DNA of 57,677 nt from an uncultured Oscillospiraceae bacterium (GCA_964614955.1 CAZTNR010000002.1:1-57677), one strand, 5' to 3'. Positions 4,970-44,473 are shown, numbered from the stretch's first letter. A program made the numbers and translations. Notes: generated from the letters alone by a model not told the origin.

Positions 4970-4975
4970 GTTGTG

Positions 4976-24744: not shown

Positions 24745-26436
24745 ATGAAAAAATTCTTATCAGTACTTCTTGCAGCACTTATGCTTGCTACAGGTACATT
24801 CGCGGCATTCGAAAAGGTTAATACATATGACAATAACTTTTCCGATGTCAAGGACACTAACTGGTTTGCAAAGGATGTAAAGTCTGCTTACGAACTCGGC
24901 TTTATGAACGGTAAGGCAGAAGGTCTTTTCGATCCTAACGGTAACGTAACAGTTGCTGAAGGTATTACAATGGCAGCAAGAGTTCACGCTATTTATAACG
25001 GCAATGAAATCACAAAGGCTGAAAAGCCTGTTGTAGCTGCCGGTGACGAAATCCGTTTTGATTTCGACACACTTGACGGTCACAGACTCAACCACGCAGT
25101 GGGTGATGTTGAAGACGGCGTTCTTGTAATGCAGCCCGATGCTCCCAATGCTTCCAACTTGTTTGACCTCGGCGTATTTATGGATGATCTTTCCATTGAT
25201 GCTTCTGTTTATAAGACAATGACTGTAAGAATGAAGAGAGACGAGCTTCCCAATATTGTTGAAAGCAGAAATGAAGCATTTGAAATCTTCTTTGGTTCTG
25301 AAGCTAACTCCACACTCGGTGCTGAAGGTAACTTCTTGTATTCAAAAATTGCAGAGCCCGAAAAGCTTTCCGACTGGAATGAATATACATTCGATATGTC
25401 TTCGGCAGCAGGTTGGACAGGCACTATTGTTCAGATTCGTTTCGACCCCACAAATAATAACGGTAAGTACTACATTGACTCTATCGTGCTCACGGCAGGT
25501 TCAGCTCCCGTAGTTGAAGAACCCAAGGCTGAAAAGTGGTATGATATGTATGTTGACTACGCTGTAGCTAACGGCATTATAACAAAGACAACCTTCGGCA
25601 GCTACGATAAGAATATCTCAAGAGCAGACCTTGCTCACCTCTTTGCAGCATCACTTCCCGAAAGCTACTTTGGTGCTATCAACGATATCAAGGGTATTCC
25701 CGATGTTGATAAGAATGATAAGTATGCAAAGGAGCTTCTTATGCTCTATAATGCAGGTGTAGTTCTCGGTGATGCAGAAGGTAACTTCAACCCTGCATCC
25801 GATATTAAGAGATCTGAAGTTGCAGCTATTATCAACAGAGTTGCTCTTCCCGAATCCAGAGTAAAGGGTACAGTTAATGCTGTATGGGAAGAAGAAAAGC
25901 CTGTTACTCCTGTAACTCCCGAGGTTCCCAAGGCAGATGAAAATGAAACTGAAAAGGAACACGTTGCAACTCCTTTTGATGTTGAATTCAATGACCCTGC
26001 GGATCTTGATAAGTTTGCTCCCGGTGAAGTTGATTCTGCTGAAATTATTGACGGCGCACTTGTAATGGTTGCAAGAGACAGAGGTGCTGATCGTCAGCCT
26101 CAGTACGACCCCAGACTTGTTATGAAGAATGTTGAAATTGATGCTGATACATACAAGACAATCAAAATCAGACTCAAGGCTGAATTCATCGGTGAAATTA
26201 CTAACGGATATTCTACAGATATTTACTTTATGACAGCTGAAGATGATAACTTCTCCGAAGAAAGATCACTTCATCCCAACCTCCTCTCTGTTTCAAAGCT
26301 TGATGATGAAGGCTGGTATCTTGTAGAGATCGACCTTACTGCTAAGGATAACTGGAGGGGCAAGGTTGTTGCATTCCGTTTCGACCCCTCTAACAACAAC
26401 GGAAAGTTCTCATTTGATTACATCAGATTTGAATAA
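24745..26436 (+). CDS. SLH-anchored surface protein, paralogue A (563 aa); lacks the conserved C-terminal domain
   Basis: RBS AAAGGAAG before ATG 24745; the track ORF starts at an upstream alternative codon. Domain order: signal peptide MKKFLSVLLAALMLATGTFA; SLH1 (FSDVKDTNWFAKDVKSAYELGFMNGKAEGLFDPNGNVTVAEG); module ending NNGKYYIDSIVL; SLH2-SLH3; module ending FRFDPSNNNGKFSFDYIRFE, then the stop. Confidence 0.9.
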   Translation: MKKFLSVLLAALMLATGTFAAFEKVNTYDNNFSDVKDTNWFAKDVKSAYELGFMNGKAEGLFDPNGNVTVAEGITMAARVHAIYNGNEITKAEKPVVAAGDEIRFDFDTLDGHRLNHAVGDVEDGVLVMQPDAPNASNLFDLGVFMDDLSIDASVYKTMTVRMKRDELPNIVESRNEAFEIFFGSEANSTLGAEGNFLYSKIAEPEKLSDWNEYTFDMSSAAGWTGTIVQIRFDPTNNNGKYYIDSIVLTAGSAPVVEEPKAEKWYDMYVDYAVANGIITKTTFGSYDKNISRADLAHLFAASLPESYFGAINDIKGIPDVDKNDKYAKELLMLYNAGVVLGDAEGNFNPASDIKRSEVAAIINRVALPESRVKGTVNAVWEEEKPVTPVTPEVPKADENETEKEHVATPFDVEFNDPADLDKFAPGEVDSAEIIDGALVMVARDRGADRQPQYDPRLVMKNVEIDADTYKTIKIRLKAEFIGEITNGYSTDIYFMTAEDDNFSEERSLHPNLLSVSKLDDEGWYLVEIDLTAKDNWRGKVVAFRFDPSNNNGKFSFDYIRFE

Positions 26437-26451
26437 TAATTTGAAAATGAT

Positions 26452-26479
26452 AAAAGGTTGACTTCGGTCAACCTTTTTT
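26452..26479 (+). terminator. Intrinsic terminator after paralogue A
   Basis: AAAAGGTTGAC-ttcg-GTCAACCTTTTTT: a perfect stem with a UUCG tetraloop, an A-run and a T-run. Confidence 0.9.
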
Positions 26480-26654
26480 GACGGAATTTATGATAAATTC
26501 TCGGGCTGAATGCTGGCTTTGCTGTCAAAATGATAAATAGTCGGGAATAAATGATAAATCAATTCGTTGTTTAAGTGTTGCTTTTTGTTATAGTTTGTGT
26601 TATCATTAATTTGTGAGTGGTTGTAATTAACAACCGTAAGAAAGGAGAAAATTT

Positions 26655-29240
26655 ATGAAGAAGTTTTTATGTCTGCTCTTGGTTGCAATAATGCTTTGTG
26701 TAGGTGTAAATGCGGAATTCGAAAAGGTTAATACTTATAACAATAACTTTTCGGATGTAACTGATTCCAATTGGTATGCAGAAAACGTGAAGACTGCATA
26801 TGAGCTCGGCTTTATGAACGGTAAGTCCGAGGGCAAATTTGATCCCAACGGCACAGTTACCGTAGCCGAGGGTATTACTATGGCTGCACGTATCCACGCC
26901 ATTTATAACGGCAATGATATTGATGCACATAAGAAGGTCGTTGAAGAATACGGCTTTACGTTTGAAGACGGTAAGGTGCCTACAGCATATAACCGTGCAA
27001 CAGGCCGCGTAGAAGATGGTGTTCTTATAGTACAGCCCGATAAACCTAACTCCAACGGTGCGTATGACCCCCAGGTTTCCTTCAACAAGCTCAGCTTCTC
27101 GGCTTCTGACTATAATCTTCTCAAGTTCCGTATGAAGATTGAGCCTCTTGATAATACTGATACATCAAAGCCCAGAAATGAAGTGCTTCAGTTCTACTTT
27201 ATGACAAATCAGTCCAGCGGAATTACTGCCGATAAGGTTGAGTATGTAAAGCTTAAAGAGCTTGGCAAGGATCTTACTGACTGGTTCGAGGTTGAAGTTG
27301 AGCTTTCGGGTAATGAAAAGTGGATTGATACTATCACAGGCTTCCGCTTTGACCCCTCCGACGATAACGGTATTTTCTATATTGACTATATCACATTCTC
27401 AAAGAGTGAAAATACTACAGGTCAGAAGTGGTATCAGAAGTATGTTGACTATGCCACAGATTACAATCTCTATGGCAAGAATGACTTTTCTTCTTCTGAT
27501 ATGAACAGAAATATAACGCGTGCTGAAATGTGTAATCTTATTGCAGCATCCGTTCCCGAAGAAGAATTTGTTGCTATCAACGACGTAAAGGGCATTCCCG
27601 ATGTTCTACGTGATGCAAGAAATGCCGATGTTTACCTTATGCTTTATAAGGCAGGTATCGTTCTCGGTGATACAGAGGGTAACTTTAAGCCTGCTTCCGA
27701 TATAAAGAGATCTGAAATTGCTGCTATCATCAATAGAGTAGCTCTTCCCGAAAACAGAGTAAAGGGTACAACAAAGACCGACTGGGCAGAGCAGGGTAAT
27801 GAGTATGACGTTGAATTCAACTCTGCCGATGACCTTGCACGTGCTGTTCCCGGTGACTGCGATTTTGCTGAAATTAAGAACGGCGCAATCACAATCATCC
27901 CCAGGGATAGAGGCGAAAACCGTTCTCCTCAGTTTGACCCCAAGCTTCTCGTTTCCAACATCAATGTAAATGCGGACGAATTTGCAAAGCTCAAGGTAAG
28001 AATGAAGGTTGATTTTGAGGGCACACCCAATCCCAGCCAGACAAAGTTCGACTTCTACTTTAAGACCGAAGGCGACGAATCTCTTTCCGAAGCAAAGTCA
28101 ATGCATCAGGCATTCACAGAATACAGCTATGTTGATGCTGCCGGCTGGTATGTAATGGAGGTTGACTTCACACTCCATAAGGAATGGAAGGGTAATATCG
28201 TTGAATTCCGTTTTGACCCCGCAAATACAAACGGCACATACACAATCGACTACATAAGACTTGCTAAGGGCGATCCTCTTCACGGCGCTTCTCACGAATT
28301 GCTTATCAGCGAAGGCTATACTGCAACAAGACTTATGCAGGACGAACACTTTGAAAGAGGCTTCGGCGTTGCTAATGTTGAGCAGAAGGAAGGCTATACA
28401 CACGGTACTTGGCAGACCTTCACAGATACCGACGAAAAGCCCCTTTGGGGTATCGGTCCCTGGTGGATTGGTACAGGCGAAGGCTTTGAAGTGGTCGATC
28501 TTTGGGACGACAGAGATTTGGCTGCCGATAAGTATACTCTTACAGATAAGTACGGTATTAACACTGTTAGGTATAACCCCGAAGAAAACTCTATCATTAT
28601 GCGTCAGAACGGTGCGGCTCTCTATCAGGGTAAGCCCCACGATAAGGAGACATATAAGTGGTGGCCTCATCTTCTTCTTGAACAGTCTGTTTCTCTCACA
28701 GGTCCCGTTGATAAGGTAAGAAACTCTGCGGCTGCGGACAGAACCTTCTTTGAAATCGACGTAAAAATGAATGACTATAAGGATACAACAAATCCTGAAG
28801 GCACTAATGTTTCATCATATCTCGTTTACTTCTATCTCGTAACAGATAAGGCACCCGGTCAGAGAATCTGGTTTGGCTTTAAGCTCTTTACAGGTGAAGC
28901 AGCTAACGGCACAGTTACACCTTCCTGGAGTCCCGACTCTGCAGCAAATCAGTATATGTACGGTATTCAGCCTGCTGATATTTATGACGGTCTTGAAAAC
29001 TCCTTCAACCCCGAAAAGGGTGTTGTTACTGCTGACGGTGAATGGAGACACGTCAGAATGGATATCACTTCCCACATCAAGAGAGCTGTTGAATGGGCAA
29101 ACCGTGATAACATCTTCGGTACCGAAGTGACTGTTGAGGATATGTACTGGAACGGCGTAAACATCGGCTTCGAAACACACGGTAACTATGACTACGAGTT
29201 CGAATTCAAGAACTTTAATATGGTTTCCTATAACAAGTAA
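26655..29240 (+). CDS. SLH-anchored surface protein, paralogue B (861 aa)
   Basis: RBS AAAGGAGAAAA. Domain order: signal peptide; SLH1 (26748-26909); module (26943-27401, ...FRFDPSDDNGIFYIDYITF); SLH2-SLH3 (27426-27752); second module (...FRFDPANTNGTYTIDYIRL); C-terminal domain 28270-29240 (KWWPHLLLEQ, RIWFG, WSPDSAANQYMYG, GVNIGFETHGNYDYEFEFKNFNMVSYNK). Confidence 0.92.
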   Translation: MKKFLCLLLVAIMLCVGVNAEFEKVNTYNNNFSDVTDSNWYAENVKTAYELGFMNGKSEGKFDPNGTVTVAEGITMAARIHAIYNGNDIDAHKKVVEEYGFTFEDGKVPTAYNRATGRVEDGVLIVQPDKPNSNGAYDPQVSFNKLSFSASDYNLLKFRMKIEPLDNTDTSKPRNEVLQFYFMTNQSSGITADKVEYVKLKELGKDLTDWFEVEVELSGNEKWIDTITGFRFDPSDDNGIFYIDYITFSKSENTTGQKWYQKYVDYATDYNLYGKNDFSSSDMNRNITRAEMCNLIAASVPEEEFVAINDVKGIPDVLRDARNADVYLMLYKAGIVLGDTEGNFKPASDIKRSEIAAIINRVALPENRVKGTTKTDWAEQGNEYDVEFNSADDLARAVPGDCDFAEIKNGAITIIPRDRGENRSPQFDPKLLVSNINVNADEFAKLKVRMKVDFEGTPNPSQTKFDFYFKTEGDESLSEAKSMHQAFTEYSYVDAAGWYVMEVDFTLHKEWKGNIVEFRFDPANTNGTYTIDYIRLAKGDPLHGASHELLISEGYTATRLMQDEHFERGFGVANVEQKEGYTHGTWQTFTDTDEKPLWGIGPWWIGTGEGFEVVDLWDDRDLAADKYTLTDKYGINTVRYNPEENSIIMRQNGAALYQGKPHDKETYKWWPHLLLEQSVSLTGPVDKVRNSAAADRTFFEIDVKMNDYKDTTNPEGTNVSSYLVYFYLVTDKAPGQRIWFGFKLFTGEAANGTVTPSWSPDSAANQYMYGIQPADIYDGLENSFNPEKGVVTADGEWRHVRMDITSHIKRAVEWANRDNIFGTEVTVEDMYWNGVNIGFETHGNYDYEFEFKNFNMVSYNK

Positions 29241-29336
29241 TAAAAATTTAAATAGCATTGGTTAAGATATAATAGATAAGCAAAAAATAAATATATTCTT
29301 TCTTTGAAAGAGTTGCAATATTTTATCACAAAGCAC

Positions 29337-29366
29337 AAAAAGGGTTGACATCTGTCAGCCTTTTTT
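29337..29366 (+). terminator. Intrinsic terminator after paralogue B (part of the composite terminator-promoter element)
   Basis: AAAAAGGGTTGACAtcTGTCAGCCTTTTTT: a GC-containing stem with one G-U pair, flanked by A- and T-runs. Confidence 0.75.
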
Positions 29367-29374
29367 GTTATAAT
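29345..29374 (+). promoter_or_regulatory. Promoter of paralogue C, with the -35 embedded in the preceding hairpin
   Basis: TTGACA (29345-29350), an 18-nt spacer, then TATAAT (29369-29374), 40 nt upstream of ATG 29414. Confidence 0.6.
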
Positions 29375-29413
29375 TTTTACATATAACCGATGGTATATGA
29401 AAGGATGATACTA

Positions 29414-32400
29414 ATGAAGAAAATACTTGTATTTTTAGTTGTGGCACTTATGCTTGCAATCGGTGCATTGGCTCAGGATACGCCGGCTGAAACAAACACG
29501 CTTCGCTATGACTTTGACGGCATAGACGGAATATCTTTTTACCGTGCAAGCGGCGATGTTGAGAATGGAGTTCTTGTATATAAGCCTGATACACCTGCAA
29601 ACGGCGGAAGCTTTGACCACGGCTTTTTCCTTGAAGATCTCGGTTTCGATGCTTCTGAATACGATACTCTCAAAATTCGTATGAAGCGTGATAAGCTTGA
29701 TAATACTGACCCTAACAAGTCAAGACCCGAATGGCTTCAGGTTTATTTTCTGACAGCCAATGAAACAAGCTTTACTGCTGACAGAGGTGTTTCCGTAAAT
29801 CTTAAAGTAACTATTGGCGAAGAAAACCTTTCCGATTGGTTTGAGGTTGAAGTGAAGCTTTCGGGTAATAAGCTCTGGAATGGTGAAATCCCCAGAATGC
29901 GTATTGATACTACGGATAATAACGGCGTGTATTATGTTGATTATGTTGAGCTTACAAGCAGTGCCGCGGTAAAAAAGCCCGAAGTGACTGAAAGTGAAAC
30001 AGAAGAAAATGAGACTCCGGAGGAAATTAACATTTCCTTTGAAAAGGTTAATACATATGCCGGTAACTTCGGTGATGTTCCCGCTACATCTTGGTATGCC
30101 GAAAATGTAAAGATGGCTTACGAGCTTGGCTTTATGAACGGCAAGTCCGAAGGCGAGTTTGACCCAAGTGGAAATGTAACGGTTGCTGAAGGTATAACAA
30201 TGGCAACGCGTCTTCACGCTATTTCAATAGGCAGTGAGGTTAGTCAGGAAACGGCGTCCGGTTCTGATTCTTTGCGCTATGATTTTGATTCAATGGACGG
30301 CATTTCTCTTTCTCATGCTGTTGCAAAAGCGGAGGACGGTCTTCTTGTCCTTCAGCCCGATGCCCCTCTTTCCAACGGTCTATATGACCCCGGCTTTTTC
30401 CTTGACGGACTCGATATGTACGCCACCACCTACGATACATTCAAGATTCGTATGAAGAGAGATAAGCTTGATAATACCGACCCCAACAAGTCAAGACCCG
30501 AGTGGCTTCAGGTTTATTTCCAGACCATAAATGATCTTAACTTCAAGGGCGAAAGAGGCTATTCCGTAAATCTTAAAAATGTGATAGGCGAGGATAAGCT
30601 CTCGGATTGGTTTGAGGTTGAAATCAAGCTTTCCGACAACGCACTCTGGAAGGATACCATTTCAAGAATGCGTATCGACCCGACAGATAATAACGGCATT
30701 TATTATATTGACTACATCGAATTTTCAAAAAGCGGCGAGAAGAGCGCAAACGAAAAATGGTATGACCTTTATGTAAGCTATGCTCTCACACATAACATTA
30801 TCAAGCAGAACACATTCTCTACCGAAGAATACACAAGAAACATAACACGTGCCGAAATGTGTAATCTTTTTGCTGCGGCTCTTCCCGAAAACTATTTCCC
30901 TCCCATAAATAAAGTTACGGCAATTCCTGATATGGATAAGAATGACTACTATGCGGATATTATGCTTATGCTCTACCGCGCAGGTGTTGTTCTCGGCTCC
31001 GATGCTGAAGGAAACTTCAATGCCTCTTCTGATATTAAGAGATCAGAGGTTGCGGCAATTATCAACAGAGTTGCACTTCCCGAAAATAGGGTAAAGGGGG
31101 AAATTACAGGTGACTGGGCAAGCTCATACCATTTGCACGATATTGAATTTAATGATCCTTCTGAACTTGATAATCTCTATTTGCCGGAATCAAGCTCAGA
31201 AGGTGAAATCAAGGACGGACACCTTGTTCTTAAGCCTGTCGAAAGAAAGGTTGCACCCACATATGATGCACAGGTAGGAAAGCTGGGAACAAGCATCCGC
31301 GCCGATGAATATACTACTCTCAGAGTCAGAATGAAGATAGAGTATAAGGGTGCAATCGGCAGAACAAAGGGCGAATTCTTCTTTACTCCCGAAGGCGTTG
31401 GAAATTTTGCTCAGGATTACGGATATTTCCCCGATTTTGAAGCGGGATATTATGTTGATGCCGCCGGCTGGAGAGTTTACGAATTCTATCTCGGCGGAGT
31501 TGAAAACTGGAAGGGTAATATCACAGGCTTCCGCTTTGACCCCACAAACAATAACGGCGTATATACTATCGACTATATCCGTTTTGTCAGAGAAGAAAGC
31601 ACAATGATTGTCTCTGATGAAGAACTCGAAAAGAATTATACTGCAACAAAAGTGTTCGAAGACGAGGGATTTGAAACAGGCTTTATAGTAAAAGAACCCG
31701 ACGGTGATAGAAAAGCGGTTGGTACATTTACATACGGCGATGAGACAAAAGAGCCCAAGTGGTATCTTCTTCCCTGGTGGACAAAGGCTTGCTTTATAAA
31801 TGATGCGGCAGAAACAAATGATAAATATACAATAGCCGATAATATAGGAGCAAAAACCTTTAAGTATAATCCCCAAGAAAAGTCTGTCACAATGAGACTT
31901 GATACAGAAAAGGTTTATGAGGGCAAGGCTCACGGTGCTGATGATATGTGGCCGCACCTTCTTGTCGAGCAGTCTTTGTATGCAGATGATTATTCCAAGG
32001 TTCCCGAGGAAAAGAAGGAGAGCCTTGACCTCGGTGCAGATAAGGTTTACGTTGAAATGGAAGTAAAGCTTAATGAGCTCGTTGACCTTGACGCTCATAA
32101 CAGACAGGACGGCGTAAGAAGTCATATTAAGTATAATGTTTACTTCTACGTTGCACACAAGGATATTCCAGGTACACATACATATTTTGGCGTAAATCCT
32201 CTTGATACAAGAGGAAATAACTCCACACAATATGACTGGTTCAATGATACCGAATCTACTATGATGATTTACAGAGTTCCCGCTTCTGATTTTGTAACAG
32301 AAGAAAACGCACTCGGTAATGACGACGGAACGTATAATATGGGCGAATGGAAGAAGATAAGAGTTGATATCACTCCTCACCTTGAAAATATTGCATCACT

Positions 32401-32554: not shown

Positions 32555-32606
32555 TAACGTATATGTTCTTTTTTCTAAATAGTTGTTATATTTTATCTTA
32601 TAAAAC

Positions 32607-32636
32607 AAAAAGGGTTGACAATTGTCAGCCTTTTTT
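32607..32636 (+). terminator. Intrinsic terminator after paralogue C (composite element)
   Basis: AAAAAGGGTTGACAatTGTCAGCCTTTTTT, nearly identical to 29337-29366. Confidence 0.75.
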
Positions 32637-32644
32637 GTTATAAT
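32615..32644 (+). promoter_or_regulatory. Promoter of paralogue D, with the -35 embedded in the preceding hairpin
   Basis: TTGACA (32615-32620), an 18-nt spacer, then TATAAT (32639-32644), 40 nt upstream of ATG 32684. Confidence 0.6.
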
Positions 32645-32683
32645 AAGACGTAATAATTTTGCATAAAAGAAAGGAACAGGCAA

Positions 32684-35344: not shown

Positions 35345-35371
35345 AAAAGGTTGACTTAGGTCAGCCTTTTT
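35345..35371 (+). terminator. Intrinsic terminator after paralogue D (composite element)
   Basis: AAAAGGTTGACttagGTCAGCCTTTTT. Confidence 0.75.
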
Positions 35372-35379
35372 GTTATTAT
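35351..35379 (+). promoter_or_regulatory. Promoter of paralogue E, with the -35 embedded in the preceding hairpin
   Basis: TTGACT (35351-35356), a 17-nt spacer, then TATTAT (35374-35379), 39 nt upstream of ATG 35418. Confidence 0.55.
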
Positions 35380-35417
35380 TAGTATGGTAAATACTCTTGA
35401 TACAGAAAGGAATAAAG

Positions 35418-37970
35418 ATGAAAAAGCTTGTTTTTGTTGTTTTAGCAACCCTTATGCTTGCGGTCAGCGTTAATGCTGCGTTTGAAAAGGTTAATACCTA
35501 TGATAATAACTTTTCCGATGTTAAGGATTCGGCGTGGTACGCAGAAAACGTGAAAACTGCATATGAACTCGGTTTTATGAACGGTAAATCCGAGGGAAAA
35601 TTTGATCCTAACGGTAATGTTACTGTTGTTGAGGCTCTTACTATGGCTTCGCGTCTTCACGCAATTTACAACGGTACAGAGGTAAAACCGAGAGAAGCGG
35701 GTAATAATGAATTCCGTATTGACTTTGACTCAATGGAGAATGTTTCCGTAAGATCCAATACAATCGGCAGAGTAGAAGACGGTGTTCTTGTGCTTGAGTC
35801 AAAGGGACCTAACAACAACGGTCTTTATGATCTCGGCACAATGATTGTCGGACTCGACCTTGATGCAAATGAATATAATAAGGTCAAGATTCGTATGAGA
35901 AGAGATTTTCTTCCCAATGTAAACGGCGATGAAAACCGCGATGAACGACTTGAACTTTTCTATATAACGAGCACGGAAACTCAGTATGATATGTCAAAGT
36001 ACGTTGCAATTGGTACTTCAAAGGTCTCGGATATGTCCGAATGGTTTGAGGTTGAGGTTGATGTATCTTCAAAAGAAAAGTGGAAGGACTATATCAAGGG
36101 TGTTCGTCTTGACCCTACTAATAATAACGGTATCTACTATATCGATTACATTTCCTTTACAAGAACCGAAAAACAGGTTGATAATAAATGGTATCAGATG
36201 TATGTTGACTATGCTGTTGACAACAAGATTGTAAATAAGGATAAGTTCAGAGAAGCCGATTATACCAGAAATATCACGCGCTTTGAGCTTTGCGAGCTTT
36301 TTGCAGCAGCTCTTCCCGAAGAATGCTATGCTCCTATAAATGAAGTAAAGGGTATTCCTGATGTGTTCAGAGACGAAGAAAACGCTGATATTGTTCTTAT
36401 GCTGTATAAAGCGGGTATTCTTCTCGGCTCAGACAGCAAGGGTACATTCAATCCTGCATCCGATATTAAGAGATCGGAAGTTGCTGCCATTATCAACAGA
36501 GCAGCACTCCCTGAAAACAGAGTAAATGGTTCTGTGGATTTTGACTGGGCGGCACAGGGTAATGAATATGACCTTGAATTTACTGACGAATCAAGCCTTG
36601 ATAATGTAACATTCAATGCTGAATCCGTCGAAGTGAAGAACGGCTCACTTGTTCTCGTTCCCAAGTACAGAGGCGACGGTCAGAGCTTAAAATACGACCC
36701 CCAGATAATTGTCAAGGATATCAATATCAACGCCGATGAGTATACAAAGCTTAAGGTAAGAATGAAGGTTGATTTTGACGATGAGATTTCAAATACAAAC
36801 TTTGAATTCTTCTATATGACAGACGATGATGAGAACTTCTCTCAGTCGAAGTTCGCCTTTGCTGACCTTCTTGCATATGCAAAGGTTGACCCTGCAGGAT
36901 GGTTTGTTGTTGAAGTTGACCTTGCACTGAGAGAACAGTGGAAGGGAACTGTTAAGGCGTTCCGTTTTGACCCTGCAAATACAGGCGGTACATATACAAT
37001 TGACTATATAAGACTCGCAAAGGCTGATTATCTCCAGGGTGCTTCCCACGACGCACTTGTGGCTGAAGGTTATACATCAAATCGACTCTTCGAAGATGAA
37101 GATATGGCAAACGGCTTCTATGTATCTCAGGTTGAAATGAAGCAAACAGCCAAGAATTACGGCATGTTCACAGATTATTGTGAAACTGCTGCCGCTCCTC
37201 TTTGGGCAATTGCGCCCATATGGTCAAAGTATGACCTTGTAGAAAACAGAGATACAAAGGCTGATAAATATACTCTTGCCGATACATACGGCATAAATAC
37301 AGTTAAGTATAATCCCGAAGAAAAGTCCTTATCCTTGCGTCTTGATGCAACAAAGGTTTATTATGGAGAAGCACACGACAGTGCAACCTATAACTGGTGG
37401 CCGCATCTTCTTATCGAACAGCTTGAAGAAGTGGATAAGAAAAAGAATTCGGCTGCAGCTGATAGAGTTTTTGCAGAGGTTGACCTCAAGCTTTCCGATT
37501 TTAAGACAACAACAAATCCCGAGGGAATCAATGCCTGTCAGTATGTTGCTAACTTCTATCTTATGACAGATAAGGCACCCGGTCAGAGAATTTGGTTTGG
37601 TCTGAGTTTGTTTGATGACCGTCTCGGCGGTAATACAACAGTAATTCCTTCCTGGAGCCCCGACTCTGCGGCGAATATGTATATGTATATAATTCCCACG
37701 GCTGTTGTGTTTGACGGTATCGAAAACAGCTTTACTCCAAAGAAGGGTGAGGTTGTTTCGGGCGATGAATGGAAGCACGTAAGACTTGATATTACGCCCC
37801 ATATCGACAGAGCAGTTGAATGGGCAAACAGAGACAATATCTTCGGTACTCAAATTACAAAGGAAGATTTGTACTTTGGCGGCGTAAATATCGGCTTTGA
37901 AATTCACGGAAATTACGATGCAACATTTGAGCATAAGAATCTTAATATAGTTTCCTATTACAAAGACTAA
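35418..37970 (+). CDS. SLH-anchored surface protein, paralogue E (850 aa)
   Basis: RBS AAAGGAA before ATG 35418; the track ORF starts at TTG 35397. Same architecture as the other paralogues. C-terminal domain 37020-37970 (NWWPHLLIEQ ... GVNIGFEIHGNYDATFEHKNLNIVSYYKD). Confidence 0.92.
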   Translation: MKKLVFVVLATLMLAVSVNAAFEKVNTYDNNFSDVKDSAWYAENVKTAYELGFMNGKSEGKFDPNGNVTVVEALTMASRLHAIYNGTEVKPREAGNNEFRIDFDSMENVSVRSNTIGRVEDGVLVLESKGPNNNGLYDLGTMIVGLDLDANEYNKVKIRMRRDFLPNVNGDENRDERLELFYITSTETQYDMSKYVAIGTSKVSDMSEWFEVEVDVSSKEKWKDYIKGVRLDPTNNNGIYYIDYISFTRTEKQVDNKWYQMYVDYAVDNKIVNKDKFREADYTRNITRFELCELFAAALPEECYAPINEVKGIPDVFRDEENADIVLMLYKAGILLGSDSKGTFNPASDIKRSEVAAIINRAALPENRVNGSVDFDWAAQGNEYDLEFTDESSLDNVTFNAESVEVKNGSLVLVPKYRGDGQSLKYDPQIIVKDININADEYTKLKVRMKVDFDDEISNTNFEFFYMTDDDENFSQSKFAFADLLAYAKVDPAGWFVVEVDLALREQWKGTVKAFRFDPANTGGTYTIDYIRLAKADYLQGASHDALVAEGYTSNRLFEDEDMANGFYVSQVEMKQTAKNYGMFTDYCETAAAPLWAIAPIWSKYDLVENRDTKADKYTLADTYGINTVKYNPEEKSLSLRLDATKVYYGEAHDSATYNWWPHLLIEQLEEVDKKKNSAAADRVFAEVDLKLSDFKTTTNPEGINACQYVANFYLMTDKAPGQRIWFGLSLFDDRLGGNTTVIPSWSPDSAANMYMYIIPTAVVFDGIENSFTPKKGEVVSGDEWKHVRLDITPHIDRAVEWANRDNIFGTQITKEDLYFGGVNIGFEIHGNYDATFEHKNLNIVSYYKD

Positions 37971-37976
37971 ATACAT

Positions 37977-38004
37977 AAAAAGGTTGACTTAGGTCAGCCT
38001 TTTT
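37977..38004 (+). terminator. Intrinsic terminator after paralogue E (composite element)
   Basis: AAAAAGGTTGACttagGTCAGCCTTTTT, starting 7 nt after the stop. Confidence 0.75.
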
Positions 38005-38012
38005 GCTATTAT
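37984..38012 (+). promoter_or_regulatory. Promoter of paralogue F, with the -35 embedded in the preceding hairpin
   Basis: TTGACT (37984-37989), a 17-nt spacer, then TATTAT (38007-38012), 31 nt upstream of ATG 38043. Confidence 0.55.
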
Positions 38013-38042
38013 AAAGGCATAAGAAAAACTTGGAGGTGTAAT

Positions 38043-40643
38043 ATGAGAAAAATGGCTATCTTTATGATACTCTCACTTGTTCTTGTTACAGGAGCATCTG
38101 CGGTTTTCGTAAAGACAAGTACTTACGACAATAACTTTTCCGATGTTAAAGAATCGGCGTGGTATGTAAAGGATGTAAAGACAGCATATGAGCTCGGATT
38201 TATGAACGGAAAATCAGACAGTTTATTTGACCCCAACGGCAGTGTTACCGTTGTCGAAGGTATTGCTATGGCGTCTCGACTCCACGCCATCTACAACGGT
38301 ATAGAAATTAAACCGAGGGACAATGAGGTACAAGAATACAGAATTGATTTTGAAGATCCAAGTATTATAGTCGATTTGACAAAGAGAAATCAGCGTTTGG
38401 ACAGCGGCATAGGTTTTCACCGTTCTACGGGTTATATTGAGGATGGTGTTCTTGTCGTACAGCCCGATGCACCAAACGACAGAGGCATTTATGACCCGGG
38501 TGTATTCATAAAAGGCTTTGAGCTTGATACAAGATACTATAATAAGCTCACATTCCGTATGAAAAGACAGGCGCTTAATAACGTAAATCCCGATGCACCG
38601 AGAAGCGAAACTGTGGAAATCTTCTTTGCAACCACTTCTAACGGAAATATTTCGGGGGATAAATGCGTAACTGTAAGCCTTAAGGATATTCCCGACCTTA
38701 CAGAATGGGTTGAGGTCGAGGTTGATTTGTTTAAGCACGGAAAGTATACTGATTTTCTCAAACAAATCAGATTTGACCCTACTAATAATAACGGCATTTA
38801 CTATATTGACTATATCGCATTTTCACATAGTGAAAACTATAACGGTGAAAAATGGTATGATATGTATGTCAATTATGCCCTTGATAACGGAATTGTCAAA
38901 CAGCACGATTATTATACCGACGATTACTCGAGAAATATCACAAGGGGAGAGCTGTGCAGTCTTTTTGCATCGGCACTTCCCGAAGCATACTTTGAAAAAA
39001 TTAATGATATCAAAGGTATTCCCGATATTTTGCGAAACGATAAGAATGCCGATGTTTTCCTGATGCTCTATAATGCGGGCATTGTTCTCGGCTCTGATAA
39101 AGAGGGGACATTTAACCGCGACAACGATATAAAACGGAGCGAAGCTGCGGCAATTATAAACAGAGCTGCGCTTCCCGAAAACAGAGTGAAAGGCAGTATT
39201 TCTGCAACATGGGAAATTGACGGAACACCGTACGACATAGAATTTGATGACCCGTTGTTCCTTGACACGGCAACCTTTGAAGCAGAGAGCGTAGAGATAA
39301 ATAATAGTGTACTTACTCTTAAGGTTTTCGACAGAGGAGAGGGGAGAACTACGCGCTTTGACCCGAAAATCACAGTTAAAAATACAGATATTGATGCAAA
39401 GAAATATTCAAAGCTGAGAATAAGAATAAAGCCCGAGTTTAAGGGCGAGGTTACAAATAGAAATATTGACTTCTATTTTATGACCGAGGGTGACTCAAAC
39501 TTCTCGGAAGCAAAGTCCTTTCATATGTCATATGACGGTCAGTATGTAGATTCGTCAGGCTATACTTTTTTTGAAATTGATTTCAGACTTCTTCCCATCT
39601 GGGACGGAAAGGTGACGGCAATACGCTTTGACCCTGCCAATGCCGACGGCATCTTTCATATTGACTATATCAGATTTATCGAAGACAAAAACGGCTATAA
39701 TACCTTGTTTACTCATAACGAGCTTGTTGAAGCAGGGTATACCTCAACAAGACTTATGCGTGATGAGGGCTTTGAAAGAGGCTTTTATGTGTCCCGAATT
39801 CAGAATACGGCAAGCTCGCCTGAAAAAGGTTTGTTCAGGGATTATGTTGAAACAAATGATATGCCGCTGTGGAATATTTCTCCCCATTGGGCACGCTTTG
39901 ACCTTGTGGATGATAGGGATACAACAACCGATAAGTATACAATCAAGGATAAGCACGGCGTTAATACAATCACCTATAACCCTGATGAAAAATCTCTTAC
40001 AATGAGGGTAAATACATATCCAATCTATGAGGGCAAACCTCATATTGATGATGAGTATAAATGGTGGCCTCATCTTCTTGTGAGTCAGTCTTCTGATATC
40101 TGCCCAATAGATAAAAAACGAAATTCTGCAGCGGCCGACAGAATGTTTATTGAAGCGGATATCAGACTCCTTGACTTTAATGACACAACGATAAAAGCGG
40201 GCACAACCAGTGCAAACTTTATGGCGTACTTCTACCTGCGTACCGATAAGTCTCCGGGTGACCTTATATGGTTCGGTATAAACTTCTTCAACGGAACAAA
40301 AACCGACTCCGCTATAAGATGCGGCTGGGCACCCGATTCTGCAGCTCATCAGTATATGTATAAGATGTCGCAGGCAATAGTTTACGGCGGTGTAGAAAAC
40401 TCCTTTGTTCCCGAAAACGGTGTAGTTCTGTCAGGGGATGAATGGAAGCACGTAAGAATTGATGTTACACCACATATTCAGCAGGCAGTTGACTGGGCAA
40501 ACAGAGACGACGCCTTCGGCACACCCGTAACTGTTGAAGATATGTACTTCGAAGGTGTTAATATCGGTTACGAAACCTGGGGCAATTACGATTACACGGT
40601 TGAGTTCAAAAACTTTAATATGATTTCATACAATAAGCCATAA
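38043..40643 (+). CDS. SLH-anchored surface protein, paralogue F (866 aa)
   Basis: RBS GGAGGTG and a signal peptide. Same architecture as the other paralogues (YYIDYIAF, FHIDYIRF). C-terminal domain 39681-40643 (KWWPHLLVSQ ... GVNIGYETWGNYDYTVEFKNFNMISYNKP). Confidence 0.92.
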   Translation: MRKMAIFMILSLVLVTGASAVFVKTSTYDNNFSDVKESAWYVKDVKTAYELGFMNGKSDSLFDPNGSVTVVEGIAMASRLHAIYNGIEIKPRDNEVQEYRIDFEDPSIIVDLTKRNQRLDSGIGFHRSTGYIEDGVLVVQPDAPNDRGIYDPGVFIKGFELDTRYYNKLTFRMKRQALNNVNPDAPRSETVEIFFATTSNGNISGDKCVTVSLKDIPDLTEWVEVEVDLFKHGKYTDFLKQIRFDPTNNNGIYYIDYIAFSHSENYNGEKWYDMYVNYALDNGIVKQHDYYTDDYSRNITRGELCSLFASALPEAYFEKINDIKGIPDILRNDKNADVFLMLYNAGIVLGSDKEGTFNRDNDIKRSEAAAIINRAALPENRVKGSISATWEIDGTPYDIEFDDPLFLDTATFEAESVEINNSVLTLKVFDRGEGRTTRFDPKITVKNTDIDAKKYSKLRIRIKPEFKGEVTNRNIDFYFMTEGDSNFSEAKSFHMSYDGQYVDSSGYTFFEIDFRLLPIWDGKVTAIRFDPANADGIFHIDYIRFIEDKNGYNTLFTHNELVEAGYTSTRLMRDEGFERGFYVSRIQNTASSPEKGLFRDYVETNDMPLWNISPHWARFDLVDDRDTTTDKYTIKDKHGVNTITYNPDEKSLTMRVNTYPIYEGKPHIDDEYKWWPHLLVSQSSDICPIDKKRNSAAADRMFIEADIRLLDFNDTTIKAGTTSANFMAYFYLRTDKSPGDLIWFGINFFNGTKTDSAIRCGWAPDSAAHQYMYKMSQAIVYGGVENSFVPENGVVLSGDEWKHVRIDVTPHIQQAVDWANRDDAFGTPVTVEDMYFEGVNIGYETWGNYDYTVEFKNFNMISYNKP

Positions 40644-40648
40644 CCTGT

Positions 40649-40687
40649 AAAGAGCCGATGCGTGTCGGCTCTTTTATCTTTTTTTCT
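40649..40687 (+). terminator. Intrinsic terminator after paralogue F
   Basis: AAAGAGCCGA-tgcgtg-TCGGCTCTTTT followed by ATCTTTTTTT. Confidence 0.85.
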
Positions 40688-40695
40688 CAAATGGG

Positions 40696-40724
40696 TTGAT
40701 AAATACGTTAATCTATGTTATAAT
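40696..40724 (+). promoter_or_regulatory. Promoter of paralogue G
   Basis: TTGATA (40696-40701), a 17-nt spacer, then TATAAT (40719-40724), 46 nt upstream of ATG 40770. Confidence 0.55.
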
Positions 40725-40769
40725 TAAAAATATATTTGAATAATTTGATTTACGAATTGGAGATTAAAA

Positions 40770-43700
40770 ATGACTTTAAGAAAAGTACTTTCATTGCTTG
40801 TAATCATATCATTTGCTCTTTTGCTTCAGATTGCCGTTGCCGCTTTGCCTTCTGTTGTTACAGCCGCAGATACGGCAAATGAAATAGTTGAGGCTTCCTC
40901 TGATATTTCAGGTCTTTTCGCAGACGGTTGTGTTTCAATTAATATCGGCGAAAAAGTGAATGCGGAAAATATAAGATATGCTGAGATTGACGGAGTGCAG
41001 ACAGAAATTGCCGAGAATAACAATCAATATTCGGCTTTGATTGGAGATAATAATTTTATTGTTACAATCATAGAAAAAACAGTCGACAAGGCTTCTGTTG
41101 TGAAAACACAGTGCTTTTATGTAAATGCCGCCGATAAAACTGCAGTAAAGCTTAATATGGACTCATATATGAAGTCTTATGAAGATAAAGCAATCAGAAC
41201 TGTCGGTGAAATGGGAATACGCTTCAAGGCCCATATTCTTTCAGATGTAAAGTCGGAAGAGATTGACTTTTCCATTGATGAATACGGCTACATAATTTCA
41301 ACAAAGGAAGCCCTTGGTTCTGAGTCTCTTACTTTTAATTCTTCAAGGTATATCACTGGTGTTGCATACAATAAAGCTGACGGCACCGACATTGTTTATG
41401 ACCGAACTAATGATGATTACGATATCTTTACCGGTGTACTGAAAAATGTGCCTGTGAAGAATTATGAAACAGAGCTTGTATGTAAAACATATACAAAGCT
41501 TACTGTTGTAAATGAAGCATTTGTAATTTACGGAGAACCTGTTGCCGGTAATGTCTTTGATATCGCAGCTCGGATTTTTTTAAATGATTCCTCAAATTTG
41601 AGTGTTGCAAAAATAATTTTTGATTATATTGAGTGCTCGAGAAATGCGGATTCCTCCTTCACAGACAGCTTTGTCAATTGTGAAGCCGATGGTACAAGCC
41701 TTGATGTCAGCGGTTACTTTGAATGCAGCTCTTCCGATACCAATGTATATAACGTGTATCTTGTAACATATGATGAACTTGGCTCAATTGCTTCGGTTGA
41801 AAAATCTGATGATTTTACACTTGTGTCGGGATTGAACTCATTCACTGCCTCCTTTGAAACGCAGGACGAAGGCTTAGAGACAAAGGCTTTTGTGCTTACA
41901 TCCGATATAAGACTTGTATCTTGTGAAGACAAGATTCGCTGGACGCCTTCGCAGGATATTTTCTACGATATTCTGTGCTCCGATGTCTTTGATGCCGAAA
42001 CGGATTTTTCTTCTCTTATTGATTCTGATGAAAACGTATCAATAATTGAAGGTATCAGTATTGCTTCGGCGCTTCACGCAAAGAAAAACAGTAAAAAAGT
42101 TACCGTAAATGAAGATGCTGTATATGAGCATTATGTTGAAATGGATGATGCTTCACAGCTTATAGACCTTTCCGAAAGGAATTCAGTTAATCTTGACGCT
42201 ATGAATTTCGGAAATGCAAGCGGTGAAATTGATGAAGAAAACGGCTATCTTATTGGTACTTCAACCGTTAAATCGAACGGCGGCTACGACCCACAGCTTA
42301 CAATCAACGGTCTTTTGCTTGAAGCAAGAAAATACAATAAGATTACTGTTCGTATGAAGTTCGAAAAGTTTGACGGCAGTGAGTCGAATATATCCAAGCA
42401 GTCTGTACAGATTTTCTTTAAGACAAATATGAGTACCGGTCTTTCTGAAACAAACAGTTGTTTGTACTCACTCAAGAATGTTGCAAATCCCTATGATTGG
42501 TTTGAGTTTGAACTTGAAATGAGCACCAAGGAAGCGTGGAACAACTTTATCACAGGCATACGCCTTGACCCGACAAATGCAAATGTCAAGTTCTATATTG
42601 ATTATGTAAAGTTTTCACAGAGCGATAATGCTGTTAATACGGCGTGGTATGACAGATTTCTCGATTATGCATATGAAAACGATATTGTTGAAATAGGCGA
42701 CTTTACCGAAGCCGAGTTCGACAGGGATATTACAAGAGAAGAATTGCTTACAATGCTTGTAAAGGCTCTCGGTGAGGATGAGTTTAATACAATAAACAGC
42801 GATATTTGCGCTATTCCTGATGTTGACAGAAACAGAGATAATGCGGAAATTTTCCTTATGCTCTATAAATCGGGCATTACTCTCGGCTTTGATAAAGACG
42901 GAAACCTTTGTCCCGAAAATAGCATTCTCAGAAGTGAAACTGCTGCAGTAGTCAATAGAATCGCTGTTGACGATAACAGGCTTGTCGGTACTGTTGATGC
43001 TACGTGGGAAAGCGATGATTATATCAATGACTATGAGTTTAACGATTCTTCAGACCTTAGTCGGTTTACAACTCGTAAGAGAATGACAGAGCAGGTTGTT
43101 TCCGACGGTGCATACTCATTCAATGCAACCTGGGATTCATATATGGTTGACCCGTCTATTTCTATAGATGCGGATAAGTACACCAAGATTAAAATAAGAA
43201 TCAAGGCTGACTATGCATCAGAACCCAATGCAAGCGGTAAGACATATAATGTTTATTTTAAACCCGAGGATTTTGACGGTGAAATTACTCATTACACCTA
43301 CAGTGAAGCTGTAGCAGATTACTATCTTGACGCTGCAGGCTGGTATGTATTTGAAATTGATATGTGCCTGCATCCCAAGTGGAGAGGAAATGTAAGCTAT
43401 TTCCGTTTTGATCCGATGAATTCCGCAGGCTCATATAAGATTGACTATATTCGTTTTATCAAGTCCGAATATGCGGATTATCCCGACCAGGAATCGCTTA
43501 TAAATGCCGGCTATACTGCAACAAGACTTATGCAGGATGAGGATTTTACCCGCGGATTCTATGTCAGCTCGGTTGACCAGTCTGTGTCTTCCGTAAATCA
43601 CGGTCTGTGGCAGGACTACTGTGAAACCTCCGATGCACCTCTTTGGCAGATTGGCCCCTGGTGGCAGGGAACAGGCGAGGGCTTCGAGACGGTTGACCTC

Positions 43701-44465
43701 TGGGAGGACAGAGATACAACCACCGATGAGTATACTCTTGCAGATAAATACGGTATAAATACTATTACCTATAATCCCGAGCTTAAGTCTATAACACAAA
43801 GACTTGATGCCACAAAGATTTATGGCGGTGAGCCTCACAATGTTGACACTTATACGTGGTGGCCTCATCAGCTTCTCGAGCAGAATACAAACTACACGGG
43901 TGATGTTGATAAAGACAGAAACTCTGCCGATGCAGACAGAATGTTTGTTGAGCTTGATGTCAGAATGACAGACTTCAAGAACACGACAAATGCCGAGGGC
44001 ACAAACGTGTGCTCATACCTCGTTTACTTCTATCTGCGACCCAAGGCACAGCCCAATCAGAGAATCTGGTTCGGTCTCAATCTCTTCTCGACAAGCTCTT
44101 CAACCGAAAACCCCACAGGTCTTACTGCACCTACAAGTGTAAAACCGAACTGGTCGCCCGACTCTGCGGCACATCAGTATATGTACGGAATGCCGATGGC
44201 TGTTGTTTATGACGGCATTGAAAACTCCTTCAACCCGTCAAGCGGCGTTGCGGATGTTAGCGACGAATGGAAGAAGATACGTCTTGATGTTACTCCTCAT
44301 ATTGATAGAGCAATTGAATGGGCTAATCGTGACGATATCTTCGGCTATGAAGTTACAAAGTCTGATATGTACTTTGACGGTGTAAATATAGGTTATGAAA
44401 TACACGGTAACTATGACTGTACATTTGAGTTTAAGAACTTCAATATGATTTCTTATAATAAGTAA
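40770..44465 (+). CDS. SLH-anchored surface protein, paralogue G (1231 aa), with an N-terminal extension
   Basis: RBS GGAGA and a signal peptide. Domain order: an extra ~390-aa N-terminal region containing a GIRF-type domain (41195-41570); a degenerate SLH1 with only its C-terminal half recognisable; module (FYIDYVKF); SLH2-3; module (YKIDYIRF); C-terminal domain 43461-44465 (TWWPHQLLEQ ... GVNIGYEIHGNYDCTFEFKNFNMISYNK). Confidence 0.9.
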   Translation: MTLRKVLSLLVIISFALLLQIAVAALPSVVTAADTANEIVEASSDISGLFADGCVSINIGEKVNAENIRYAEIDGVQTEIAENNNQYSALIGDNNFIVTIIEKTVDKASVVKTQCFYVNAADKTAVKLNMDSYMKSYEDKAIRTVGEMGIRFKAHILSDVKSEEIDFSIDEYGYIISTKEALGSESLTFNSSRYITGVAYNKADGTDIVYDRTNDDYDIFTGVLKNVPVKNYETELVCKTYTKLTVVNEAFVIYGEPVAGNVFDIAARIFLNDSSNLSVAKIIFDYIECSRNADSSFTDSFVNCEADGTSLDVSGYFECSSSDTNVYNVYLVTYDELGSIASVEKSDDFTLVSGLNSFTASFETQDEGLETKAFVLTSDIRLVSCEDKIRWTPSQDIFYDILCSDVFDAETDFSSLIDSDENVSIIEGISIASALHAKKNSKKVTVNEDAVYEHYVEMDDASQLIDLSERNSVNLDAMNFGNASGEIDEENGYLIGTSTVKSNGGYDPQLTINGLLLEARKYNKITVRMKFEKFDGSESNISKQSVQIFFKTNMSTGLSETNSCLYSLKNVANPYDWFEFELEMSTKEAWNNFITGIRLDPTNANVKFYIDYVKFSQSDNAVNTAWYDRFLDYAYENDIVEIGDFTEAEFDRDITREELLTMLVKALGEDEFNTINSDICAIPDVDRNRDNAEIFLMLYKSGITLGFDKDGNLCPENSILRSETAAVVNRIAVDDNRLVGTVDATWESDDYINDYEFNDSSDLSRFTTRKRMTEQVVSDGAYSFNATWDSYMVDPSISIDADKYTKIKIRIKADYASEPNASGKTYNVYFKPEDFDGEITHYTYSEAVADYYLDAAGWYVFEIDMCLHPKWRGNVSYFRFDPMNSAGSYKIDYIRFIKSEYADYPDQESLINAGYTATRLMQDEDFTRGFYVSSVDQSVSSVNHGLWQDYCETSDAPLWQIGPWWQGTGEGFETVDLWEDRDTTTDEYTLADKYGINTITYNPELKSITQRLDATKIYGGEPHNVDTYTWWPHQLLEQNTNYTGDVDKDRNSADADRMFVELDVRMTDFKNTTNAEGTNVCSYLVYFYLRPKAQPNQRIWFGLNLFSTSSSTENPTGLTAPTSVKPNWSPDSAAHQYMYGMPMAVVYDGIENSFNPSSGVADVSDEWKKIRLDVTPHIDRAIEWANRDDIFGYEVTKSDMYFDGVNIGYEIHGNYDCTFEFKNFNMISYNK

Positions 44466-44473
44466 AAAAATTG

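Follow-up and report, generated by a model that had tools for sequence, protein, structure and literature searches.

The subject of this analysis is a tandem array of seven paralogous genes, A1 to A7, in a 57,677-nucleotide (nt) stretch of DNA from an uncultured Oscillospiraceae bacterium (GCA_964614955.1, CAZTNR010000002.1:1-57677), which as a whole is referred to here as the window. An original prediction, made from the sequence alone, had placed in this region seven individually transcribed surface proteins anchored by S-layer homology (SLH) motifs. Open reading frame (ORF) calls and translation recovered seven consecutive plus-strand ORFs at 24745-44465, exactly where they had been placed. 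Each is preceded by a ribosome-binding site (RBS) of the AAAGGA/GGAGG type 6 to 10 nt 5' of its ATG (7/7 genes), and each translated N terminus passes from a basic through a hydrophobic stretch to an AxA-type site, resembling a signal peptide (for example, MKKFLSVLLAALMLATGTFA followed by AFEKV), so that the predicted RBS and Sec-type signal were found for every gene. Using BLAST and hidden Markov models (HMMs) built from the window's own copies, the proteins were divided into SLH1 and SLH2-3 segments, modules of about 155 amino acids (aa), one of which (M1) is inserted between SLH1 and SLH2-3, and a C-terminal domain (CT), as listed below.

24745-26436, plus strand: A1, 563 aa, without CT; signal peptide 24745-24804, SLH1 24805-25029, M1 25039-25497, SLH2-3 25501-25959, M2 25963-26430
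26655-29240, plus strand: A2, canonical, 861 aa; signal peptide 26655-26714, SLH1 26715-26939, M1 26940-27410, SLH2-3 27411-27788, M2 27789-28274, CT 28290-29237
29414-32554, plus strand: A3, 1046 aa, three modules, with an extra M0 before SLH1; M0 29489-29962, SLH1 30035-30262, M1 30263-30733, SLH2-3 30737-31123, M2 31124-31597, CT 31625-32542
32684-35284, plus strand: A4, canonical, 866 aa; SLH1 32744-32968, M1 32969-33475, SLH2-3 33476-33853, M2 33854-34336, CT 34352-35275
35418-37970, plus strand: A5, canonical, 850 aa; SLH1 35478-35699, M1 35700-36170, SLH2-3 36171-36551, M2 36552-37028, CT 37044-37964
38043-40643, plus strand: A6, canonical, 866 aa; SLH1 38103-38324, M1 38325-38834, SLH2-3 38835-39218, M2 39219-39683, CT 39714-40637
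40770-44465, plus strand: A7, 1231 aa, long signal peptide, without SLH1; N-terminal region 40866-42125, M1 42126-42626, degenerate SLH2-3 42627-43013, M2 43014-43469, CT 43488-44462

The order signal peptide-SLH1-M1-SLH2-3-M2-CT is exact only in A2, A4, A5, and A6. The single architecture proposed for all seven genes thus stands for these four and has to be relaxed for A1, which has no CT, for A3, which has a third module, and for A7, which has no SLH1. In A1 the two modules were recognized by the module HMM (E 3.5e-54 and 2.3e-57), and the CT HMM found no match. Its orthologues in three metagenome-assembled genomes (MAGs) are 563 to 571 aa long, are 86 to 87% identical, and all end at the same point after M2; since they stop where A1 does, sequence comparison identifies A1 as a conserved short form. 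The most divergent CT is that of A3, with 31 to 36% identity to the others.

SLH motifs were confirmed by Pfam (PF00395) in A1 to A6, at 54 to 66 bits against a cut-off of 20.8 (E 1e-14 to 1e-18; 2.8e-18 in A1). Pfam recognizes one or two SLH stretches per protein, including two within the SLH2-3 segment of A1 and one within that of A2, and the third motif was read by eye (W-Y-x-x-Y-V-x-Y-A ... N-I-T-R-A-E). The SLH assignment does not extend to A7, whose SLH3 in the SLH2-3 segment reaches only 14.7 bits, below the same cut-off. The whole A7 protein has no Pfam family match and no BLAST match to SLH1, and its N-terminal extension of about 450 aa (420 aa at 40866-42125) likewise matches nothing in Pfam. 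This N-terminal region is also the least conserved part of A7 relative to its orthologue (60%, against 75 to 90% for the other domains). Between paralogues, the most alike region is SLH1 (mean identity, 70%), followed by SLH2-3 (52%), CT (48%), and M1 and M2 (39 to 40%), and whole paralogues within the window are 45 to 60% identical. Rfam and tRNA scans of the window gave no match.

The same domains recur in three giant frames of the window, G1, G2, and a third at 45757-50838. The iterated module HMM found 25 copies (15 in the array, 4 in G1, 5 in G2, and 1 in the third giant gene), in line with the roughly 25 that had been predicted, while a first pass without iteration found 21; the E values of the iterated search are inflated, since hits were fed back into the model. 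Module copies match one another at E 1e-47 to 1e-64, with 33 to 51% identity between paralogues (about 39% on average). Of CT we counted 8 copies (A2 to A7, G1, and G2), which match one another at E 1e-124 to 1e-159, and not the nine expected, as the third giant gene has none. The four gene regions together sum to about 40 kb, as estimated earlier for the coding sequence of this one family.

The spacers between the genes were scanned for matches to the promoter consensus (-35 plus -10, scored out of 12, with an extended -10 TG noted) and for hairpins, which were scored as terminator-like. The best promoter-like matches of the scan fall in the array spacers, and a pattern search for the spacer element AAAGGnTTGACnnnnGTCAnCCTTTT returned 5 copies against 0 expected by chance, in the array only. 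The features are as follows.

26452-26477, plus strand: spacer hairpin AAAAGGTTGACttcgGTCAACCTTTT after A1, terminator-like on both strands; copy of the 26-nt repeated spacer hairpin
29335-29368: terminator-like hairpin after A2
29339-29364: copy of the 26-nt repeated hairpin
29339-29374, plus strand: spacer element before A3, with the -35 TTGACA in the 5' hairpin arm and, 18 nt later, TGTTATAAT
29345-29374, plus strand: promoter-like site before A3, 12/12 consensus, extended -10 TG
32609-32634: copy of the 26-nt repeated hairpin
32609-32644, plus strand: repeated hairpin/promoter element before A4
32615-32644, plus strand: promoter-like site before A4, 12/12 consensus, extended -10 TG
35345-35370: terminator-like hairpin after A4; copy of the 26-nt repeated hairpin
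35345-35379, plus strand: repeated hairpin/promoter element before A5
35351-35379, plus strand: promoter-like site before A5, 10/12 consensus, TG
37978-38003: copy of the 26-nt repeated hairpin
37978-38012, plus strand: repeated hairpin/promoter element before A6
37984-38012, plus strand: promoter-like site before A6, 10/12 consensus, TG
40649-40674: terminator-like hairpin after A6, apart from the promoter-like site; joint spacer element 40649-40724, plus strand
40696-40724, plus strand: promoter-like site before A7, 11/12 consensus, TG
44473-44497, both strands: GC-rich, bidirectional terminator-like hairpin at the end of the array; 8 of its 11 pairs are GC

In the repeated element, the -35 hexamer of the next promoter sits in the 5' arm of the hairpin, and a TATAAT-like box lies 17 to 18 nt downstream in 4/5 of the spacers with this hairpin. 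The A4 spacer is 83% identical to the A3 spacer over 84 nt (repeat family D18), and the closing hairpin is common to the end of A7 and the convergent AraC gene. Since promoter-like sites precede A3 to A7 and terminator-like hairpins stand in the spacers, as had been proposed for most of the genes, separate transcription of each array gene is plausible from these signals. The A1-A2 spacer is unusually long (218 nt) and carries, within 115 nt (26446-26559), four direct copies of (A/T)ATGATAAA(T/A), a candidate binding site that may serve a regulator; this motif is not enriched across the window as a whole.

Every paralogue is matched one to one by an orthologue, with 75 to 92% aa identity, in separately assembled ruminant-gut MAGs, namely, Oscillospiraceae SIG639, Clostridia RGIG8792 (from water deer colon), and a Feifaniaceae MAG. 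Besides A1, the identities are 88 to 90% for A2, 75% for A3 (loci L007 and L008), 85% for A4, 91 to 92% for A5, 79 to 80% for A6, and 75% for A7 (locus L003). Synteny in related MAGs is partial: other contigs contain the junctions G2-A1-A2, A3-A4, and A5-A6 (about 80 to 85% nucleotide identity), and the order A2-A3, A4-A5, A6-A7 differs. The latter, together with the metagenomic type of the contig, would agree with an assembly artefact of mis-joined or collapsed repeats. However, the DNA repeats shared by paralogues are at best 60 to 79% identical over no more than 300 nt, without long near-identical stretches, so that an assembler would not confuse them. Because, in addition, distinct orthologues of all seven paralogues occur in independently assembled genomes and the three junctions recur, we rejected this explanation as extremely improbable. 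By sequence comparison, the array predates these species and later underwent rearrangement. In related MAGs, the AMP-binding/PFOR genes (1-4094 in the window; 15029-19122 in L001) and the glycoside hydrolase family 106 (GH106)-like gene (4976-7901; 12507-15435 in L003) adjoin different array members, so that the locus as a whole has been rearranged between species.

The family had also been called diversifying. This description is misleading, as the paralogues are old and deeply diverged and every domain is conserved alike between orthologues (83 to 88%). Ongoing hypervariation was rejected in view of this domain-wide conservation, which instead indicates long-maintained paralogues, each apparently settled on its own module version and conserved in its own lineage. 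The same data bear on the idea that the proteins are S-layer or structural envelope components, serving as alternative building blocks or variable antigens, with strong promoters providing high abundance. SLH anchoring, the perfect or near-perfect consensus promoter matches with an extended -10 before several genes, and the many paralogues per genome in related MAGs would all agree with such a role. Nevertheless, we consider it unlikely: no invertible segments or silent cassettes were seen, the paralogue repeats are as short and dissimilar as stated above, and domain-by-domain conservation between orthologues argues against antigenic variation. Moreover, CT also occurs in small lipoproteins, in leaderless proteins, and in a protein with a dockerin, none of which are proteins that form lattices.

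What the modules and CT might do was approached through sequence and fold. SLH was the only family named by Pfam or NCBIfam in any array protein, neither the modules nor CT being matched. The modules end in a conserved motif, R-F-D-P-x-N-x-N-G-x-Y-x-I-D-Y-I, which is particular to this family and had been noticed before. Their alignment gave only a chance match to the Protein Data Bank (PDB) by sequence or profile (E 0.93), and no described carbohydrate-binding module (CBM) family (CBM11, CBM27, CBM28, CBM4/22, or CBM6) was matched by sequence in Pfam, NCBIfam, or the PDB; the modules thus remain as unnameable as they had first seemed. A profile search for their occurrence elsewhere returned 3 fragments only. 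Structures of M2 and CT of A2, the latter spanning residues 541-861 of the protein, were modeled with AlphaFold from alignments of the window copies and metagenomic relatives. The module model (predicted local distance difference test [pLDDT], 92.4) was matched by Foldseek to CBM11, CBM27, CBM28, and a xylanase CBM at E ~1e-4 and a template modeling (TM) score of about 0.5 (0.46 to 0.55). The Eph receptor ligand-binding domain scores as well as these CBMs, and a gingipain adhesin domain also shares the fold. In the model, therefore, the module is a CBM-like beta-sandwich for which carbohydrate binding is suggested by fold similarity; since Eph ligand-binding domains reach the same scores, no particular ligand follows from the fold.

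The CT model (pLDDT, 94.2; predicted TM score, 0.92) gave a more uniform picture. All 50 of the 50 PDB matches listed by Foldseek are endoglucanases or xyloglucanases of glycoside hydrolase family 12 (GH12) or xylanases of family 11 (GH11). Among those listed, GH12 occupies ranks 1 to 22, followed by more GH12 together with GH11 (E 3.9e-9 to 1e-4; probability, 1.00; TM by target, 0.41 to 0.52), the GH11 structures being weaker matches that begin at rank 23 (E 3.4e-6). The best of the listed matches is Thermotoga maritima Cel12A (3AMH; E 3.9e-9, probability 1.00, TM 0.51, 268 columns, ~10% identity). The model thus presents CT as a GH12/GH11-like jelly roll, that is, the beta-jelly-roll fold of clan GH-C, and such scores are to be read as a shared fold and not as family membership. 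Searched by sequence or profile, the CT alignment found 0 matches in the PDB, and a Foldseek search against viral structures gave no useful match.

One residue stands out within this fold. E300 (A2-CT numbering), in the motif N296-x-G298-x-E300-x-x-G303, is invariant in 123/123 diverse relatives and is the sole invariant acidic residue. In the model it lies on the next-to-last strand, directly after the only long helix, and in the GH12 fold the same place is held by the acid/base of Trichoderma reesei Cel12A, E200, whose G-x-E-x-x-x-G motif agrees in sequence with 1h8v. We infer that E300 is on the strand equivalent to that of the GH12 acid/base. Other well-kept residues are D23, W58, W130, H132, E136, Q181, Y185, Y187, W199, D206, D221, and D263. 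CT is fairly described as a domain that has a GH12/GH11-like cleft and a single invariant Glu and whose catalytic competence is putative.

CT is also widespread. A full scan of 1.84 billion representatives, with clusters at 50% identity, yielded 613 clusters at E ≤ 0.001 and 345 at E ≤ 1e-10. In contigs from one genome per species, CT was present in 74 loci, nearly all of them in MAGs from ruminant guts that belong to Acutalibacteraceae, Oscillospiraceae, or unclassified Clostridia. At most of the loci CT forms a protein by itself, about 322 aa long and hydrophobic at its N terminus. Many distant relatives have lipoprotein-type signals followed by Ser/Thr-rich linkers. In multidomain relatives the domain is accompanied by Big_2, Listeria-Bacteroides repeats, or a type I dockerin, the last in two distant relatives (P0164 and one of 82 distant members). 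Neither dockerin nor cohesin, as markers of cellulosome membership, was found in any window protein. The public names of ten relatives are only "hypothetical protein" or "Ig-like domain-containing protein," and searches of the literature gave no description of the CT family or of this architecture.

Taken together, we hold with moderate confidence, a little above even, that this old and conserved array, with its own promoter for each gene, encodes modular surface proteins that are exported by Sec, anchored to the wall, and act on glycans. The dockerin, Big_2, Listeria-Bacteroides repeats, and lipoprotein N termini among CT relatives support the glycan part, as such settings are typical of extracellular carbohydrate-active modules, and so do the GH106-like gene and the AraC regulator adjacent to the array. 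We infer wall binding, split-SLH assembly, glycan ligands, and catalysis along the following lines. After export, the signal peptide would be cut behind the AxA-type site, and the three SLH motifs would assemble around the inserted M1 and anchor the protein to the secondary cell-wall polymer. The two ends of jelly-roll modules often lie close together, which would permit such a split-SLH assembly. M1 and M2, as CBM-like beta-sandwiches, would then capture glycan with a ligand preference specific to each paralogue, and the 315-aa CT would present a GH12/GH11-like cleft, with E300 at the inferred acid/base position, that binds and perhaps cuts a polysaccharide chain.

Several findings weigh against this interpretation. 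No csaB, the pyruvyl-transferase gene linked to SLH binding, was found in the 57,677-nt window. The agreement of CT with GH12 (TM ~0.5, root-mean-square deviation 5.5 Å) is one of fold similarity only. In Pfam, including GH12 PF01670, nothing was matched at E ≤ 10 by 33 close members, and 82 distant members matched nothing over this domain at E ≤ 0.01, GH11 included. Alignment of the CT family to 120 fungal GH12 sequences with hhalign gave a probability of <1%, both globally and locally, in a set that is not diverse (all at least 50% identical to T. reesei), and the local match covered 5 columns only (RIWFG to MIWLG). For the catalytic partner of E300, we favor a strand register in which residues 132-138 are B5 and 156-169 are B6, picked from three matchings by strand counts alone. 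On this nucleophile-strand candidate, position 160 is Glu in 24/123 relatives and position 162 is Asp in 66/123, E160 being conserved within the SLH-linked subfamily (at least 90% of 33). A GH12-type retaining pair was not recovered because the favored strand has no family-wide conserved acid, and catalysis stays putative since only E300 is invariant. Furthermore, some CT relatives lack a signal peptide, five of them encoded by a single operon (L009). Additionally, the stand-alone CT genes of Acutalibacteraceae and related MAGs (61 loci, L012-L074) occur in single copy at few fixed places, beside housekeeping genes and not in clusters for sugar use, such as after asd-dapA-dapB or between mfd and a HAD hydrolase. 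The earlier proposal of wall-anchored glycan-binding or glycan-processing proteins fits both folds, and it remains an argument from fold in which the GH12 catalytic pair was not recovered.

The leaderless operon was seen at 3587-8258 in both L009 and L010, from two MAGs close to the window's organism. Its five stand-alone CT genes (305 to 312 aa) are 3 to 16 nt apart, each with its own RBS and without a signal peptide, and an SLH-type paralogue lies directly downstream; leaderless copies of an otherwise exported domain are puzzling. A third fixed place of the stand-alone CT genes is after a 166-aa protein that we read by eye as MscL. No carbohydrate-use genes were found near the 61 stand-alone loci, and their neighbors give no functional hint.

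The confidence placed in a glycan-directed role includes a smaller share for genuine hydrolysis by CT. Tentatively, and with clearly less than even expectation, CT may be a new glycoside hydrolase family, a third and very distant branch of the GH11/GH12 fold with an altered catalytic set, perhaps E300 with a noncanonical partner such as D221, D206, or E136. The array would then be a wall-anchored enzyme bank, in which paralogue-specific CBM-like modules would aim the enzymes at different polysaccharides, and the split SLH would be a new way of building the anchor. The main rival is that the proteins are noncatalytic adhesins or lectins, whose CT binds glycan without cutting it, for attachment to plant particles, mucus, or other cells. 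Having only one invariant acid and no conserved GH12-type nucleophile, CT would suit this role, as would its lack of sequence match to any glycoside hydrolase family. A1, moreover, is conserved without CT, and therefore the SLH-plus-module part works alone, and the module fold is also that of the protein-binding Eph receptor and gingipain adhesin domains. We regard this role as possible and rather doubtful, because an invariant Glu in N-x-G-x-E at the inferred acid/base position is more typical of an enzyme, D23, D206, D221, and D263 are also highly conserved, and the 50/50 structural matches listed are enzymes, none of them lectins. Finally, CT could belong to another enzyme class with a similar beta-sandwich, such as the glutamic (Glu/Gln) peptidases or the polysaccharide lyases, with surface or dietary polymers as substrates. 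Glu/Gln pairs are catalytic in eqolisin peptidases, and Arg/Gln/His/Tyr sets are catalytic in jelly-roll lyases; in CT, E300 is conserved together with Q181 (90/123), Q137, H132, Y185, Y187, and R/K164. This is very unlikely, however, as the 50 listed structural matches include neither peptidases nor lyases, no such family is matched in Pfam, and A2, A3, A4, A6, and A7 have Ser, Asn, or Lys in place of Q181.

Around the array, whose preferred interpretation remains that of wall-anchored proteins acting on glycans, the window contains the following related or adjacent genes.

4976-7921, minus strand: GH106-like gene (alpha-L-rhamnosidase family), Pfam PF17132, E 3.4e-12, score 46 bits (cut-off, 29)
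8373-16958, plus strand: G1, 2861 codons, in-frame TAG 8937-8939, CT 15951-16955; four weaker module copies at 9432-10064, 11172-11702, 11958-12527, 13749-14270
17591-24640, plus strand: G2, 2349 codons, in-frame TGA 22442-22444, CT 23645-24637; five modules at 18581-19009, 19256-19813, 20687-21241, 21422-21937, 23183-23611
44507-45508, minus strand: AraC-family regulator (cupin plus HTH_18), Pfam PF12833 E 1.4e-19, PF00165 E 3.8e-16
45757-50838, plus strand: third giant gene, 1693 aa, one module at 49753-50334, no CT

Pfam thus confirmed both the linked glycoside hydrolase and the AraC regulator; no transporter gene was found in Pfam scans of the window proteins. Starting 18 nt after the third giant gene, 50857-55062 encodes a 1401-aa protein with an alkaline phosphatase domain (E 2e-55), Big_2 below the cut-off, and about 1000 aa without a family. 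All three giant genes contain modules, as predicted, and two of them are interrupted by in-frame stops. The TAG of G1 follows 188 codons, and the next ATG, 178 codons later, has no RBS. The homologue P0133 (2878 aa) has a Gln sense codon at this position, and the TAG has the look of a nonsense change from CAG, of a sequencing error, or of a strain variant. The TGA of G2 is found at the same codon position in L011 and L001 (window 22442-22510; L011 8786-8854; L001 2337-2405), with identical local sequence in one other genome and a locally different sequence in SIG639 (~81% nucleotide identity). The ORF downstream of it (22478) has neither an RBS nor a signal peptide, and a stable RNA hairpin is predicted 9 to 12 nt after the UGA in all three genomes (z -3.4, -4.35, and -2.6); Rfam gave no match to this region. 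Programmed read-through, reinitiation, or selenocysteine could account for this TGA. Stop-codon reassignment was rejected, because the two in-frame stops differ (TAG and TGA) and two genes of this region end normally in TGA.

The CT family is sizeable, found mostly in ruminant hindgut Clostridia, and without a name, a Pfam or NCBIfam model, or a solved structure, and its cellulase-like fold is confident. Should CT prove active, gut fiber digesters would have a further, new family of carbohydrate-active proteins, whose atypical active site would call for explanation; were it to bind without cutting, names would still be gained for two widespread domains that have none and for a split SLH anchor. 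The array is, moreover, a natural experiment in which seven long-kept paralogues present different binding modules in the same frame.

In the original prediction, no characterized system of this composition had been recognized. This is upheld for the domains, which are undescribed, and not for the kind of system, which has precedents in SLH-anchored modular enzymes and in paralogous wall-anchored families. SLH-anchored multimodular glycoside hydrolases (xylanases and glucanases) are known from Firmicutes such as Thermoanaerobacterium, Clostridium/Acetivibrio, Paenibacillus, and Caldicellulosiruptor. As in these enzymes, the array proteins combine a Sec signal, three putative SLH motifs, CBM-type sandwiches, and one larger domain of glycoside hydrolase fold, with a regulator and another glycoside hydrolase gene nearby. 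In contrast, the large domain and the modules here match no described family by sequence, catalysis is putative, seven paralogues stand in one array, and the SLH triplet is split (SLH1-M1-SLH2-SLH3); to our knowledge, the three SLH motifs of the known hydrolases are contiguous. With GH12 and GH11 (clan GH-C; 3AMH and 1H8V), CT shares the beta-jelly-roll fold and, with GH12, the long helix followed by two final strands, the first of which carries the invariant Glu in G-x-E. It differs from GH12 in its ~10% identity, in being about 60 to 100 residues larger, in lacking a PF01670 match and any hhalign probability above 1%, and in the second catalytic Glu, which is not conserved in the CT family. 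The modules resemble type B CBMs (CBM11, CBM27, CBM28, and CBM4/22-type) in length (~160 aa), in their beta-sandwich, and in their place beside a glycoside hydrolase-like domain, and differ in having no sequence match and their own R-F-D-P-x-N-x-N-G end motif. The S-layer-associated BSL proteins of Bacillus anthracis and the Cwp proteins of Clostridioides difficile are paralogous families of wall-anchored surface proteins, and there, as here, one wall-anchoring unit is joined in many paralogues to differing functional parts. Here, however, tandem paralogues share the whole architecture, their functional domains are of an unnamed family, and the anchor is SLH, as in the BSLs, and not CWB2. New in this array are two domain families that the searched libraries do not describe, the module between SLH1 and SLH2, the tandem arrangement of seven genes whose spacers carry a terminator/promoter element, and a GH12-like set of residues in altered form.

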